Below, in pieces: positions 5,928-21,236 of a stretch of DNA of 64,000 bases. Both the position numbers and the translations under genes were made by a program. The DNA is from a virus. The notes below the pieces were generated by a model. That model was not told the DNA's origin. It ran no database searches and saw only the letters and a list, made by a program, of their open reading frames with translations. How positions within the stretch are numbered: position 1 is the stretch's first letter; each line of letters opens with the position of its first letter. Location of the stretch: IMG/VR virus record IMGVR_UViG_3300043410_001242; one strand, written 5' to 3'.

Positions 5928-6740
5928 ATGCCTCGTGGTATTCCTAAGTCTGGTTTTCGTATGACCAAGAATCGTGCTGCTTCTATTGTTGCAGAAGTAC
6001 CAGTATCCCGTTTTTCAATCAACCAGCGTTTCGGTTTCGTATCTGACATGGTGTCCATGCTCGCTAACGGTGAGCAGGCCTCTGTTGTTGTTACTGGTCC
6101 TGGCGGTCTTGGTAAGTCACACACCGTATACCAGTCTCTTGTCAAGTCTGGTTTCAAAGATGTTACCACCCTTGACGGTTTCGATGCTGGCACCGTTCTT
6201 GGTAAGAAAACCTTTGTTGTAGTCAAGGGTTACTCTACTGCTAAGGGTTTGTATCGTACTTTGTTCGAGAACCGTAACGGGGTTATCGTATTCGATGACT
6301 GTGATTCGGTACTCAAGGATCCAGTATCTCTTAACATTCTCAAGGGTGCTCTTGATTCTTATTCAAAGCGTATTATCTCTTACAAGGCTGATATTCGTGA
6401 TGATGACCTGCCTAATGTATTCGAGTTCAAAGGTCGCGTAGTATTCATCTCAAATCTTGGTTCTAATCAGCTGGATCAGGCCATTATCTCACGTTCAATG
6501 GCTGTTGATTTGACTATGACTCCCGATCAGAAAGTTGATCGTATGCGTTACCTTATCGAACAGTCTGACTTTATGCCAGAGTTTAATAAGTCTCTCAAGG
6601 TAGATGCTCTTGATCTTATTTCTTCTCTTGCTGGTACCGTCAAAGACTTGTCGCTTCGCACTCTTATTCAGGTAACTAAGATTCGCAAGTCAGCAGGTGC
6701 CAATTGGCGTGATCTTGCAGAGTATGCAATCTGTGGTTAA
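5928..6740 (+). CDS. P-loop AAA-type ATPase
   Basis: Walker A GPGGLGKS, Walker B VIVFDDCD, VFISN; ATG 5928 after GGAG. Confidence 0.85.
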   Translation: MPRGIPKSGFRMTKNRAASIVAEVPVSRFSINQRFGFVSDMVSMLANGEQASVVVTGPGGLGKSHTVYQSLVKSGFKDVTTLDGFDAGTVLGKKTFVVVKGYSTAKGLYRTLFENRNGVIVFDDCDSVLKDPVSLNILKGALDSYSKRIISYKADIRDDDLPNVFEFKGRVVFISNLGSNQLDQAIISRSMAVDLTMTPDQKVDRMRYLIEQSDFMPEFNKSLKVDALDLISSLAGTVKDLSLRTLIQVTKIRKSAGANWRDLAEYAICG

Positions 6741-6800: not shown

Positions 6801-7949
6801 ATGACTAAAAATCAAAGTGAATTTCTTGATGCTGTTAAACAGGTTCTTGGTGATAAAATGGTTCTGACCCGATCTGAAATTGATCAGGTCGTGTCAGAGA
6901 AAGGTGTTAAGTTTCCATATTGGTTAACCACCAAGTCGAAGTTTCGTATTGGTCGAGGTGAGTATTCTCTACCTGGTAATGAAACAACCAAGGTAGCAGT
7001 AAAAATGGAAATGCCTGAACCTGTCGAGGCAATGGCTCAGGTGTCGTATCTACGTCAACCTAAACTGGTCGATGAGTCTGATACTGCCATTCCAGAAATT
7101 TGGCCTGATTATGTACCATTTGGTTTTTATAAAGATTTACTTAATATTGTAAAATCTAAGATGTTTTATCCAGTATTTGTTACTGGTCTGTCAGGTAATG
7201 GTAAAACTCTGATGATCGAACAAGTGTGCGCTAAACTGAAAAGGGAGTGTATCCGTGTTAATGTATCTATCGAAACTGATGAATCTGACCTATTGGGTGG
7301 TCCTACTCTCGTTAATGGTAATGTTGTTAATCGAGATGGGCCGGTTCTTATAGCAATGAAACGTGGTGCGGTACTTTTGATTGATGAGGTGGATCGTGGA
7401 TCGAATAAGCTTATGTGCTTGCAAGGTATTCTTGAAGGAAAGCCATATTATAACAAGAAAACCGGCGAGGTCGTATACCCAACCGACGGTTTCAATGTCA
7501 TTGCGACCGCAAACACCAAAGGTCGTGGTTCAGAAGAAGGTCGGTATCTTTCACAAGTTCTTGATGATGCCTTCCTGGAACGGTTTCCTATCACGGTAGA
7601 ACAGGAATACCCGGATGTCAAGACTGAGAGAAAAATTCTCGCACCGTTGATCTCCGACCAGGAATTCATCGACAATCTGGTCAAGTGGGCGGATGTGGTG
7701 CGCCAATCATTCGACCAAGGTGCCATTGATGAGATTATTTCTACTCGCCGACTGGTGCATATCGCGAAAGCATTCCAAATCTTCGGTGATCGTAAAAAGG
7801 CAATTGAACTTTGTGTAAATCGTTTTGATACTGACACTAAGAATGCTTTTGTTGATCTATATACTAAAGTCGATGAAAAGGTTGAAGAAGACCAGACCAA
7901 GGTTTGGGTGAATGAAACATTAACTATAAATGAAGAAGTGCCGTTTTAA
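6801..7949 (+). CDS. CobS/MoxR-like AAA+ ATPase of T4-like phages
   Basis: GLSGNGKT, LLIDEVD, ATANTKGRGS, LDDAFLERF, IISTRRLVHI. Confidence 0.9.
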   Translation: MTKNQSEFLDAVKQVLGDKMVLTRSEIDQVVSEKGVKFPYWLTTKSKFRIGRGEYSLPGNETTKVAVKMEMPEPVEAMAQVSYLRQPKLVDESDTAIPEIWPDYVPFGFYKDLLNIVKSKMFYPVFVTGLSGNGKTLMIEQVCAKLKRECIRVNVSIETDESDLLGGPTLVNGNVVNRDGPVLIAMKRGAVLLIDEVDRGSNKLMCLQGILEGKPYYNKKTGEVVYPTDGFNVIATANTKGRGSEEGRYLSQVLDDAFLERFPITVEQEYPDVKTERKILAPLISDQEFIDNLVKWADVVRQSFDQGAIDEIISTRRLVHIAKAFQIFGDRKKAIELCVNRFDTDTKNAFVDLYTKVDEKVEEDQTKVWVNETLTINEEVPF

Positions 7950-8963: not shown

Positions 8964-9004
8964 TTGACAAAATTACTCAAGAATAGTATAATCCAGTATA
9001 AATA
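8964..9004 (+). promoter_or_regulatory. tandem sigma70 promoter and T4-type late promoter upstream of pmoC
   Basis: TTGACA 8964-8969, N17, TATAAT 8987-8992; TATAAATA 8997-9004. Confidence 0.8.
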
Positions 9005-9091
9005 GTTTTGATGATGTGGAGAGTGTGACAGGATGTCGCACCTAACTCACAAGGACGTATTTTGTAACTTTAAGATGTAAAGAGGTATAAT

Positions 9092-9868
9092 ATGTCAGCT
9101 ATTAGTGCAAATGCTGTTAGAGAGGAAGCACCAGTCTTGAATAAGGCTTGGTTGTCTTTCGCGTTTGGTTTGTATTTCGTATTCTATCTATGGGTACGTT
9201 GGTATGAAGGTGTATATGGTTGGTCCGCAGGACTTGATTCATTCGCACCTGAGTTTGAAACCTATTGGATGAATTTCTTATATACAGAAATTGTCCTAGA
9301 AGTCACAACCGCAAGTATTCTTTGGGGTTATCTTTGGAAGTCAAGAGATCGTGATCTTGCCAATATTACACCAAGAGAAGAACTTCGCCGTAATATGACA
9401 CACCTTGTATGGTTATTTGCTTATGCAAATGCAATCTACTGGGGTGCATCATACTTTACTGAACAAGATGGTACTTGGCATCAGACTATCGTAAGAGATA
9501 CTGATTTTACTCCAAGTCATATCATTGAGTTCTATCTTACATACCCAATCTACATTATTACTGGGTTTGCTGCATTCCTTTATGCAAAGACAAGACTTCC
9601 TTACTTCGCACAAGGACTTAGCCTTCCATACTTGGTAACTGTTGTAGGACCATTTATGATCCTTCCAAATGTTGGTCTTAATGAATGGGGACACACCTTC
9701 TGGTTTATGGAGGAACTTTTTGTCGCCCCTTTACATTATGGTTTCGTGTTCTTTGGTTGGCTTGCTTTGGCTATTGCGGGTGTATTGCTACAGGTCTTCT
9801 CATCTTTTGCTGGTTTAATCGGCGATCAGATTGTTGAGTCTGTTGATAAGGGTTTGATTGCAAAGTAA
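9092..9868 (+). CDS. pmoC: particulate methane monooxygenase subunit C (auxiliary metabolic gene)
   Basis: VRWYEGVYGWSAGLDSFAPEFETYWMNFLYTE, EQDGTWHQTIVRDTDFTPSH, NVGLNEWGHTFWFMEELFVAPLHYGF; C-terminus VDKGLIAK resembles Methylococcus PmoC. Confidence 0.97.
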   Translation: MSAISANAVREEAPVLNKAWLSFAFGLYFVFYLWVRWYEGVYGWSAGLDSFAPEFETYWMNFLYTEIVLEVTTASILWGYLWKSRDRDLANITPREELRRNMTHLVWLFAYANAIYWGASYFTEQDGTWHQTIVRDTDFTPSHIIEFYLTYPIYIITGFAAFLYAKTRLPYFAQGLSLPYLVTVVGPFMILPNVGLNEWGHTFWFMEELFVAPLHYGFVFFGWLALAIAGVLLQVFSSFAGLIGDQIVESVDKGLIAK

Positions 9869-9888
9869 TCTAACTCACATAACCAAAC

Positions 9889-9916
9889 AAAGGGGAACTT
9901 CGGTTCCCCTTTTTTA
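9889..9916 (+). terminator. intrinsic terminator after pmoC
   Basis: AAAGGGGAAC-TTCG-GTTCCCCTTTTTT. Confidence 0.9.
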
Positions 9917-9922
9917 TTGCAA

Positions 9923-9978
9923 TTTTAATGGAATCTTAATATAACTGTAATACTCCGGTAACATTCCTGTGATAAAAT
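9923..9978 (+). promoter_or_regulatory. array of Pho-box-like 11-bp direct repeats plus extended -10
   Basis: TTTTAAT-4-TCTTAAT-4-CTGTAAT-4-CGGTAAC-4-CTGTGAT, then TGaTAAAAT. Confidence 0.5.
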
Positions 9979-10009
9979 ACCTTCGTATTTTTAAACAACG
10001 GAGACATAA

Positions 10010-10726
10010 ATGAAGAAATGGTTACTTTTAGTTCTTATTCTTATATCACATTCTGTATTCGCGAATGGAGAAGGTTCTGAACAATTATTTGGACAATGGA
10101 CACAGTTTGCAGCTTACGGTAATTTTGGTAACAAAAGTCCTTGGATTTGGTGGACTGATGTTGCAGTAAGAAGTTCTCAGAATCATAAAGCAAAAGACGG
10201 AACACAAGGTTATGACGTTGGTTCTATTCCAACTCATAGCGCAGTAGGATACCAATTTGATCCATCCAATTCTTTGATGTTGGGTTATACATATCAGTAT
10301 AGTCAACCACCATACGCAAAGAAATCAACCAATGAAAATCGTATCTATCAACAATTTCAAAACTCTTTAGATTGGAAAGAAAACGGTAAACTAACAAACA
10401 GAACTAGATATGAACAGAGATGGGTTACATATTCCAGTGAAATGGCTCAAAGGTTGAGACACCAAGTTAAGTTTCAATATCCTATCAATAAAGACTGGGG
10501 ATTCGTAATTAGTGATGAATTGTTTCTAAATATTAATAGTGTAAACTGGGGACCAAAGGCTGGATTTGACCAGAATAGAGTGTTTATTGGACCCGTTTAC
10601 AATATAGATGACAGACAGAGAGTAGAGTTTGGTTACATGAATAACTATGTAAACAAAGACTTAAAATCAGATCTAGATAATGATGTGTTAGTTATTAACT
10701 ATTATTACAATTTTACAGATTATTAG
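10010..10726 (+). CDS. DUF2490-like outer-membrane beta-barrel protein
   Basis: Signal peptide; ENRIYQQ, RTRYEQRW, RLRHQ, ELFLN, GFDQNRVFIG, EFGYMN; aromatic C-terminus. Confidence 0.8.
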   Translation: MKKWLLLVLILISHSVFANGEGSEQLFGQWTQFAAYGNFGNKSPWIWWTDVAVRSSQNHKAKDGTQGYDVGSIPTHSAVGYQFDPSNSLMLGYTYQYSQPPYAKKSTNENRIYQQFQNSLDWKENGKLTNRTRYEQRWVTYSSEMAQRLRHQVKFQYPINKDWGFVISDELFLNINSVNWGPKAGFDQNRVFIGPVYNIDDRQRVEFGYMNNYVNKDLKSDLDNDVLVINYYYNFTDY

Positions 10727-10734
10727 GAGGAATT

Positions 10735-10806
10735 ATGTGGGAAAAACCTTCATTTAAAGACATTCGTTTGGGATTTGAAGTAACTACCTATATCTACAAT
10801 AGATAA
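10735..10806 (+). CDS. pqqA: PQQ precursor peptide PqqA (23 aa, missed by ORF track)
   Basis: MWEKPSFKDIRLGFEVTTYIYNR matches the W-x-K-P...R-x-G-F-E-V-T-x-Y pattern with the ExxxY core; AGGAGG RBS at 10725-10730. Confidence 0.92.
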   Translation: MWEKPSFKDIRLGFEVTTYIYNR

Positions 10807-10807
10807 C

Positions 10808-10836
10808 TTGACAAAACATTCTTATTGTGATACAAT
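10808..10836 (+). promoter_or_regulatory. sigma70-type promoter
   Basis: TTGACA-N17-TACAAT. Confidence 0.7.
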
Positions 10837-20120: not shown

Positions 20121-20265
20121 AATTGAAATCTGTAGAAAATGTGAACATTTAAATACAGTTCTTGTTCAATGTAAAGTATGTGGATGTTTTCTCCACGCAA
20201 AAGCAAGAATGGAAGGTCAAGACTGTCCCAAAGGAAAATGGGTCTTGACAAAAGGAGAGGAATGA
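20083..20265 (+). CDS. small Cys-rich (DUF6171-like) protein
   Basis: R.EICRKC...CKVCGC...KA...CPKGKW. Confidence 0.7.
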   Translation: MTTEQRLTEFKDRIEICRKCEHLNTVLVQCKVCGCFLHAKARMEGQDCPKGKWVLTKGEE

Positions 20266-20273
20266 TATATAAT
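20245..20273 (+). promoter_or_regulatory. sigma70 promoter of tmRNA
   Basis: Perfect TTGACA-N17-TATAAT. Confidence 0.85.
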
Positions 20274-20279
20274 ACAAGG

Positions 20280-20601
20280 ATTCGTTGATGTTGACAAAAT
20301 AGGTCACCTTGGACGGGAGTTCGACTCTCCCCACCTCCACCAAAAGCACATTGGGCACCCTGGTTAACGATAACACCTGAACCCAATCTTAATCATTGTA
20401 ACAGTGTGCTTCTGATGGGGGTGTATTGGTTTTCGACAGGGGATAGTAAAGGTCAACGGAGAATCGGCAAAGCTAAAGTCGTTAGGATTGGGAGTTCCCG
20501 GTCAAAGAGGCAAATTAAATTAAACGCAAACGATGACGTTTATTCTTACGCACTAGCTGCTTAAGCGGGGTTTGGGGGTTCCTTGTCAAATAATACCCCC
20601 T
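20280..20601 (+). ncRNA. ssrA: circularly permuted (two-piece) tmRNA; tag (A)ANDDVYSYALAA
   Basis: T-arm GGGAG-TTCGACT-CTCCC, then CACCTCC-A-CCA (to 20342), precede the 5' strand GGGGGTG (20417). 7-bp acceptor stem with G3:U70; tag frame 20526-20564. Ends are approximate. Confidence 0.92.
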
Positions 20602-20618
20602 CTAATTTTGAGGGTGAC

Positions 20619-21236
20619 ATGAGTTTTTCTGAAGATGGTTTTGAAGTAGTAAGATCCTTCATAAATCCACAAACAATGAATCTATTGAAGCACGAATATC
20701 ATACACTACTGGACTTATTGTTTGAAAATCAAACATATAGTGAACAATCTATCAAGTTTCCAACAGGAGAAGTACTGACCTGTTTCAATTGGTATTCTCC
20801 AGTATTCACTGAATCTCTGTCCAAGTTATTGCAAAATAAAGTAGAAGAAATTGTAGAAAAGAAATTAGTTCCAACATACAGTATGGTGAGAACCTATAAA
20901 ACTGGAGATGAATTATATAAACACAGAGACAGGCCGAGTTGTCAATACTCTGTTACTATGCCAATATTGACATCTATTAATTGGCCTATATACATAACTG
21001 ATAGAAAAAATGTTAACAGAAAAGTATACCTAAACGAAGGTGATATGCTTGTTTATGATGGTTTTCTGGAACATTGGAGAGAAAAATATGAAGGTGAAAA
21101 ACACACACAATGCTTCCTACATTGGGTTGACGTTAATGGAAAATATAAATACCTAAAATATGACGGAAGAGCCAATTTAGCTCTACCAATGGTGAAAATA
21201 ACAGAAGAAAATGAAGCTTTCTTCAACAAACACTAA
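20619..21236 (+). CDS. putative 2OG-Fe(II) oxygenase
   Basis: LVPTYSMVRTY, HRDRPSC, WPIY, GDMLVY, HWRE, QCFLHWV. Confidence 0.75.
   Translation: MSFSEDGFEVVRSFINPQTMNLLKHEYHTLLDLLFENQTYSEQSIKFPTGEVLTCFNWYSPVFTESLSKLLQNKVEEIVEKKLVPTYSMVRTYKTGDELYKHRDRPSCQYSVTMPILTSINWPIYITDRKNVNRKVYLNEGDMLVYDGFLEHWREKYEGEKHTQCFLHWVDVNGKYKYLKYDGRANLALPMVKITEENEAFFNKH

Follow-up and report, generated by a model that had tools for sequence, protein, structure and literature searches.

Why should a bacteriophage carry, one after the other, a gene for a subunit of a methane-oxidizing enzyme, a gene for an outer-membrane β-barrel and a gene for a cofactor precursor peptide, and do the three act as one? The question is raised by a locus in the IMG/VR virus record IMGVR_UViG_3300043410_001242, of which we analyzed a stretch of 64,000 nucleotides (the window). 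There, pmoC (subunit C of particulate methane monooxygenase, pMMO), a DUF2490 barrel gene and pqqA (precursor of pyrroloquinoline quinone, PQQ) follow one another on the plus strand, on which all genes and signals of the locus described below lie. PqqA is consumed one-for-one by PqqB-E in PQQ synthesis, and PQQ is the cofactor of the periplasmic methanol dehydrogenase. An earlier interpretation, made without database searches (the sequence-only reading), had taken the three genes for a single module of one-carbon (C1) oxidation. Here we argue, with a probability of roughly 60% for the explanation as a whole, that the locus forms an islet of auxiliary metabolic genes in the genome of a T4-like freshwater phage of Methylococcaceae methanotrophs, that it is organized in two transcription units, and that pmoC and pqqA would support C1 oxidation, the porin not being specific to it.

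Identity of the three genes

The presence of three intact genes, as the sequence-only reading had proposed, was confirmed by open reading frames (ORFs) and profile scores. The product of pmoC (9092..9868, 258 residues) scores 406.2 bits against the Pfam AmoC/PmoC family PF04896 (cut-off 26.7 bits), 380 bits against TIGR03078 (280.6) and 401.5 bits against NF041641 (319). Because the NCBIfam AmoC_BACT model fires on the same protein, annotation by name would mislead. An amoC identity is ruled out by comparison with solved chains in the PDB, which gives 341–483 bits for PmoC, the best match being PmoC of M. capsulatus Bath at 483 bits, vs 240–248 bits for AmoC, and by the position of the protein among Methylococcales PmoC in the tree described below. 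In the alignment with M. capsulatus PmoC, residues D126, H130 and H143 (the Asp/His/His ligands of CuC) and N197, H201 and H215 (the Asn/His/His ligands of CuD) are all identical, so that six of six metal ligands are kept. Neither pmoA nor pmoB lies 3′ of pmoC, where a terminator and then the barrel gene are found instead; a stand-alone pmoC outside a pmoCAB operon is the usual form in pmoC-phages.

The second gene (10010..10726) encodes a protein of 238 residues with a signal peptide at about residues 1–18, predicted to be a small outer-membrane porin of the 12-strand class. It scores 143.2 bits against Pfam DUF2490 (PF10677, cut-off 29.8), a family listed as TCDB 1.B.81, a putative porin whose function is not established (PMC4827864). 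The third gene, pqqA (10735..10806), encodes 23 residues that score 42.4 bits against PF08042 (cut-off 21.1) and 42.2 bits against TIGR02107 (cut-off 20), with a WEKP leader (W-x-K-P) and an EVTTY core (E-x-x-x-Y). No family of PqqB-E was found among the ORFs scanned in the window, itself a 64-kb part of the genome, and there is no pqqABCDE cluster here: the gene after pqqA is a phage hypothetical with its own sigma-70 promoter (10808..10836, TTGACA-17 nt-TACAAT with a TG, 11/12 match). This promoter marks the end of the unit and is found again 3′ of pqqA in four related viral contigs (L014, L010, L346 and L347; L numbers denote individual loci throughout). The gene is thus a genuine pqqA that stands alone, and its product is predicted to be processed by PqqD/PqqE.

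Transcription units

Are the three genes expressed as one unit? The barrel and pqqA probably are. The barrel's stop codon, TAG at 10724-10726, runs into the AGGAGG ribosome-binding site of pqqA (10725..10730, 4 nt before the ATG), which indicates translational coupling of the two genes and supports what the sequence-only reading had concluded from this overlap. The same TAGGAG overlap is repeated at the barrel-pqqA junction of L333-335, L332, L346 and L347; a search for the exact junction pattern did not find it in a metagenome collection that evidently does not include the source sample.

Between pmoC and the barrel, an intrinsic terminator (9889..9918, hairpin 9889-9912) combines a 10-bp GC stem, a TTCG loop and a T-run, and a like hairpin lies 3′ of pmoC in L008, L009, L010, L014, L333 and L346. 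Because a terminator of this strength divides pmoC from barrel-pqqA, the trio forms two units and not one; of the operon structure proposed earlier, the barrel-pqqA part stands and the single unit of three falls.

The first unit begins with a predicted early sigma-70 promoter (8964..8992, TTGACA-17 nt-TATAAT, 12/12 consensus match), which is kept 5′ of pmoC in L014, L010, L005, L011, L333 and L001. It is followed by TATAAATA (8997..9004), which reads as a putative T4-type late-promoter box and occupies the same position in L014, L010, L005, L011 and L001. In the pmoC 5′ leader (9005-9091), a small hairpin (GTGTGACAGGATGTCGCAC) is accompanied by an ACAAGGAYG box, and the two are kept in L014, L010, L005, L011 and L333; the leader may be a regulatory or stabilizing RNA element.

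The second unit is preceded by three heptamers in 11-bp phase (CTGTAAT 9945-9951, CGGTAAC 9956-9962 and CTGTGAT 9967-9973), 3′ of which stands a -10-like TAAAAT (9973-9978) with no -35. Elsewhere, (C/T)TGTAAY stands two or three times in a row and a TATATA-like hexamer follows after about 10 nt; repeats and -10 are found in L333, L332, L331, L010, L322, L181 and L084. We scanned for TGTAAY-N5-TGTAAY with at most 1 mismatch within 180 nt 5′ of the phage DUF2490 gene (in L010, of the phosphoesterase gene) and obtained 11 matches in 1,980 upstream nt, in 9 of 11 contexts, vs 7 in the 291 kb making up the remainder of the loci. This enrichment is indicative only, because the motif was derived from the same sequences and several contexts are homologous. 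Within the window alone the motif is not significant (7 matches vs 3.7 expected), so the signal is one of cross-locus conservation.

By its architecture, the barrel-pqqA promoter is of the type served by PhoB/OmpR-family activators, for which a regulator of this family is a candidate. It has the layout of a Pho box, with at least two 7-bp direct repeats in 11-bp phase that replace the -35 about 10 bp before the -10. The E. coli Pho-box half-site consensus is CTGTCAT, and the half-sites here agree with it at 5–6 of 7 positions. Upstream of LpxH-like phosphoesterase genes of the hosts, the heptamers CTGTAAC, CTGTCAC and TTGTCAT are present. OmpR-type sites are an alternative reading of the repeats.

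Recurrence and polymorphism of the linkage

The order pmoC-barrel-pqqA occurs in at least three populations, and the barrel-pqqA bicistron in five, with barrels down to 54% identity. The full trio is found again in the Logan contigs L333 and L335, whose barrels are 78–80% identical to that of the window, and barrel-pqqA also in L332 and L347. L346 has a barrel of 54% identity, which like its terminator, boxes and pqqA is intact, and only a 3′ remnant of pmoC; in L346:1-300, the last ~40 codons of pmoC are fused behind an unrelated ORF. A single-sequence search of IMG/VR with the barrel returned no relatives; that the barrel is unique to this phage is overturned by the relatives just described.

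The linkage of pmoC to pqqA also exists independently of the barrel. On the backbone of the window, L014 has pmoC-terminator-pqqA without a barrel, and L008 and L009 have the same order on a different backbone, without barrel or boxes. In L010, the arrangement is pmoC-terminator-boxes-phosphoesterase-GT4-pqqA. Of 12 pmoC-phage records that are 100 kb or longer, four carry pqqA at other positions. Further pmoC-phages lack it at this site: in L001-3 pmoC is followed by an unrelated gene, in L005 and L011-13 it stands alone, and L006 and L007, which share the backbone of L008/9, have another mini-ORF replacing pqqA. The replacement is an unrelated ORF of 26 codons that starts with MKGFDQLGKH, ~60-145 nt 3′ of pmoC.

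Where does the linkage come from? Host gene order as its source is ruled out, since neither pqqA nor DUF2490 occurs within ±10 kb of host pmoC at any of the 80 best loci; in five host genomes, pqqA, DUF2490 and pmoC lie on separate contigs. In the PmoC tree, every pqqA-positive lineage has a pqqA-negative sister. Because of these sisters, and because the phage PqqA copies share D-I-R-L-G-F-E-V, vs D-(L/M)-R-F-G-F-E-V in hosts, the pattern fits a pmoC-pqqA linkage that arose once, early, and was then repeatedly lost or altered by the exchange of cassettes.

Origin and selection

A tree built from 143 PmoC sequences places the window copy within a virus-only clade of 15 members (support 96), whose sister (support 95) consists of four copies from metagenome-assembled genomes of lake Methylococcaceae. 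These host copies stand in operons of pmoCAB size with a G+C content (GC) of 51–57%. From its sequence, the phage PmoC is thus of the Methylococcaceae host type and host-derived. All phage DUF2490 copies form one clade (SH-like approximate likelihood ratio test, SH-aLRT, 100), whose nearest relatives include Methylococcaceae copies.

The GC of pmoC is 40%, vs 51–57% in hosts, that of the barrel gene 34% and that of pqqA 31%, in a window of 36%. The ratio of nonsynonymous to synonymous substitutions (dN/dS) is 0.06–0.12 for pmoC and 0.07–0.18 for the barrel, and among phage copies of pqqA pN is 0.21 at nonsynonymous sites, vs a pS of 0.76 at synonymous sites. The trio is therefore ameliorated to phage base composition and under purifying selection, and the sequence-only reading, which would have been contradicted by genes that were not co-retained in related phages or were under relaxed selection, holds in this respect. 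A recent capture or an assembly chimera is ruled out by the phage-like GC, saturated dS relative to hosts and recurrence in independent samples.

The window PmoC is nearest (95%) to those of L001-3, phages with another backbone; L014, L010 and L005, whose flanks are syntenic with the window, have PmoC only 87–88% identical. Because PmoC kinship and flank synteny disagree, the comparison suggests that the pmoC cassette has been swapped between phage backbones. In L015:6001-7030, L016 and L025, pmoC is interrupted or in pieces (gapped tblastn matches); such split genes in viral contigs agree with a 2020 report of fragmented pmoC.

The window PqqA, WEKP...YIYNR, is of a form common to PqqA of Methylococcaceae hosts, and most other viral contigs carry the WTKP...YVMNK type. 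More than 120 IMG/VR stretches of viral origin contain pqqA, and at the 80 loci inspected (L185-L264) all 80 copies are intact ORFs of 23–25 codons. The gene is also present, mostly unannotated, in cultured phages of Methylophilales/Methylophilaceae; GenBank phages with pqqA are MT375522 (Venkman), MZ577095-98 (Melnitz), OP830906/7, MW452941 and KX815270.

The barrel and its partners

What could the barrel contribute? The AlphaFold2 model (predicted local distance difference test, pLDDT, 91.9; predicted template-modelling score, pTM, 0.84) starts with an N-terminal hydrophobic helix and is otherwise all-β, with 11 strands by DSSP. With VIA-align it matched 12-strand porins and nothing function-specific, at Z scores that are effectively tied (NanC 15.9, PcoB 15.4, VhGalP 15.0 and KdgM 14.2; root-mean-square deviation 2.6–3.6 Å over 161–183 residues), and Foldseek against the PDB gave weak, generic barrel matches only. 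In predicted fold, small size and basic lumen residues the barrel is like the acidic-sugar porins KdgM/NanC and like PcoB (PDB 2wjr, 4pr7, 8xua, 7pge); it differs from them in sequence (only 9–12% identity) and in that DUF2490 is a separate Pfam family. The invariant residues are nearly all luminal Arg, Glu, Asp and Asn, and across 79 DUF2490 sequences no His, Met or Cys occurs in the 12 invariant and 9 near-invariant columns. A buried charge network of DUF2490 has been described in a preprint (bioRxiv 2026.07.29.741452). The protein is probably a stress-regulated, phage-adapted outer-membrane channel of host origin, Arg/Glu-lined and likely anion-selective. A very short hydrophobic ORF (~23-27 codons) lies between the boxes and the barrel in a second barrel sub-clade (L346 ~450-520, L084 ~5930-6000).

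Could this channel complete a single integrated C1-oxidation module, importing copper for PmoC or passing PQQ, a tri-anion? The order and junctions of the trio recur in at least three populations and those of barrel-pqqA in five, with barrels 54–88% identical; one of the best structural matches, which are tied, is PcoB (PcoB/CopB copper channel), a copper exporter, and a lumen rich in conserved Arg suits an anionic cargo such as PQQ. However, the tie of PcoB with NanC and KdgM shows the 12-strand fold only, and because no His, Met or Cys is conserved, no metal handling is suggested, which speaks against the metal import that the sequence-only reading had considered. The genomic distribution points the same way. 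DUF2490 is absent from 48 of 50 pmoC-phage records and lies more than 60 kb from pmoC in the remaining two. The family is present at none of the 80 other viral pqqA loci, the sister phages L014 and L008/9 do without it, and in the hosts examined it is never linked to pqq or pmo genes, adjoining instead a PLC-type phosphoesterase, a purple acid phosphatase and a sulfatase-family enzyme. We therefore consider the integrated module unlikely.

The company that DUF2490 keeps in phages is of another kind. Its most frequent partner is a translationally coupled LpxH-like metallophosphoesterase, after which comes a GT4 glycosyltransferase, and the cassette DUF2490-Metallophos-GT4 occurs in four phage contexts (L084, L181, L322 and the P0013 contig; positions L084:6702-8475, L181:4443-7945 and L322:3184-4936). 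An orthologous pair (70–77% identity) fills the slot between pmoC and pqqA in L010 (L010:6885-8819). Host homologues of the two proteins are 45–47% and 36–37% identical, and a PstS-like gene is found 2 kb away from the host pair. The pair resembles the PhoB-regulated PlcP/Agt pair of phosphate-sparing lipid remodelling; remodelling by PlcP/Agt is described in PMC4796936 and, for a methanotroph, in PMC9239053. At about 15 of 80 IMG/VR pmoC loci the phosphoesterase-GT4 pair adjoins pmoC; it stands ~1-2.5 kb 5′ of pmoC in L036, L038, L039, L041-45, L050-52, L056 and L061. Because DUF2490 is rare in pmoC-phages and its usual partners are the phosphoesterase and GT4, the barrel is probably not a C1-specific part, and its place in the module proposed earlier is weakened. 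Phosphoesterases, GT4 and a response-regulator-type promoter together give DUF2490 a first consistent functional context.

Does this context then make barrel-pqqA a PhoB-driven phosphate-stress operon unrelated to methane oxidation, next to pmoC by virtue of a shared insertion hot spot? Its porin would take up phosphate or organophosphate, and PQQ would serve periplasmic dehydrogenases in phosphate solubilization. In keeping with this are the Pho-box-like promoter architecture, the PlcP/Agt-like phosphoesterase and GT4 in the slot or cassette, the phosphatases beside host DUF2490, the PstS-like gene near the host pair, and the retention of barrel-pqqA in L346 after the loss of pmoC. Yet in L014 and L008/9 pqqA follows directly 3′ of pmoC, without barrel or boxes, and elsewhere pqqA typically occurs in phages of obligate methylotrophs, bacteria in which methanol dehydrogenase is the chief enzyme to use PQQ. 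PhoB is moreover a candidate regulator only: the exact repeat pattern was not found in five host genomes, and the regions upstream of host pstS-like genes showed no clear similar boxes. We regard such an operon as quite improbable.

A role of the barrel in envelope remodelling or superinfection exclusion, in which it would replace or mask a receptor porin and its coupling to pqqA would be incidental, is very improbable: phages, lytic and temperate, commonly encode outer-membrane exclusion proteins, and members of the barrel clade occur widely among T4-like lake phages, in many unrelated settings, but the frequent operon partners of the barrel are enzymes, and an invariant luminal charged network under strong purifying selection across 46–100% identity is more in keeping with a conserved function in transport or biochemistry than with a surface protein in an arms race.

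Phage backbone

The window encodes homologues of T4 gp59, gp32, gp6 and gp8, together with PhoH, a GIY-YIG endonuclease and a transfer-messenger RNA (tmRNA), and is that of a T4-like myovirus. At the DNA level it has zero relatives among GenBank phages. The tmRNA (20249-20655), predicted with ARAGORN and flagged as permuted, has the tag peptide ANDDVYSYALAA. Two genes 5′ of pmoC, an AAA_5 + CbbQ_C (MoxR/CobS-like) ATPase (6801-7949) is kept at 81–84% in L005, L010-12 and L014.

Discussion

How would the two units of this islet serve the phage? We propose that the first, pmoC behind its early promoter and T4-type late box and ended by the terminator, presumably lets phage PmoC replace or supplement, from the early to the late phase of infection, the pMMO subunit that is labile and bears the active site. 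In the second, the DUF2490 porin and pqqA would be transcribed from a promoter in which repeats take the place of the -35. Transcripts that pass the pmoC terminator would reach pqqA, as would, in phages that have it, those starting at the barrel's regulator-dependent promoter. Phage PqqA would then feed the host PqqB-E, and hence PQQ synthesis and methanol dehydrogenase, so that pmoC and pqqA together would keep methane flowing to methanol and formaldehyde during infection. Sustained methanol dehydrogenase would in turn provide reductant and energy for pMMO and for phage replication. That the phage supplies just those parts which become depleted once the host is shut off, as the sequence-only reading had suggested, is a conjectural rationale. 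The porin would be tied to a host phosphate or envelope-stress response, as the occupant of a variable slot that lends pqqA a regulated promoter.

Several observations weigh against this explanation. PQQ is a recycled cofactor, and that it would run short in the course of a single latent period is not obvious. The trio is not the fixed module that the sequence-only reading implied: there are sister phages without pqqA, without the barrel or without both, and in three or more sister lineages pqqA is missing, by loss or from the outset, so that any benefit must be conditional. The persistence of barrel-pqqA in L346 without an intact pmoC implies that selection can act on each unit by itself. The tight coupling of barrel and pqqA in five populations could reflect a direct functional link and not regulatory hitch-hiking. 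The two negative results from host genomes given above, on the exact pattern and on the pstS-like genes, leave PhoB as no more than a candidate for the regulator.

A further possibility, which we hold to be unlikely, is that a host regulator of PhoB/OmpR type is wired to the porin-pqqA unit, so that support of methane oxidation is switched by nutrient state, and that the barrel is a dedicated channel for an anion relevant to the pathway, such as PQQ, or phosphate mined by the PlcP-like and GT4 genes. If this is true, methanotroph phages would have here a new envelope module of several genes under common regulation and not a set of loose morons.

The regulated unit invites comparison with cyanophages, whose auxiliary genes pstS and phoA are under the control of host PhoB via Pho boxes. 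As there, host-derived envelope or periplasmic nutrient genes of a T4-like phage stand behind direct-repeat boxes of a type read by two-component regulators. Here, however, the regulated genes are a DUF2490 porin and pqqA, and in relatives a phosphoesterase/GT4 pair; the half-site is CTGTAAY and not CTGTCAT, and the regulator is a candidate only.

How much of this islet was already known? Phage pmoC and phage pqqA were both reported in 2020, and the linkage of the two was not discussed. The pmoC-phages of freshwater lakes were described by Chen et al. (Nat Microbiol, PMC7674155), and our phage is like theirs, a large lake phage with a stand-alone pmoC of gammaproteobacterial-methanotroph type that keeps its metal ligands. 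Unlike in that report, pqqA is here physically linked to pmoC, and recurrently so: the main text of PMC7674155 is silent on PQQ, DUF2490, glycosyltransferase, lipid and phosphoesterase genes, and its supplementary family table has the PqqA family in one genome only, with no comment. In Methylophilaceae phages of Lake Baikal, pqqA has been put forward as an auxiliary metabolic gene that would raise the PQQ supply of methanol dehydrogenase (Coutinho et al. 2020, Microbiome, PMC7678222). Those phages share with ours the T4-like type, the freshwater habitat and a stand-alone pqqA; they differ in having a methylotroph and not a methanotroph as host, in the PqqA type (WTKP...YVMNK there, WEKP...YIYNR here), and in pairing pqqA with methanol dehydrogenase and not with pmoC, with no DUF2490 partner. 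A 2026 preprint on amoC-phages makes no mention of viral pqqA, and our literature search returned no paper joining pmoC-phages with pyrroloquinoline. What is new, then, is the recurrent physical pmoC-pqqA linkage in methanotroph phages, the conserved DUF2490-pqqA bicistron, and its response-regulator-type promoter.

For phage genomes at large, these results indicate that many viral contigs carry a pqqA, a gene of 23 codons that gene callers routinely overlook, and that the phosphoesterase-GT4 genes beside pmoC in many pmoC-phages are a possible phosphate-sparing lipid-remodelling pair. The pmoC-phages are thought to affect the consumption of methane in lakes. If they also supply pqqA, viral support would extend to the second step of methane oxidation, and, if this is true, the supply of PQQ would be a likely bottleneck in infected methanotrophs.

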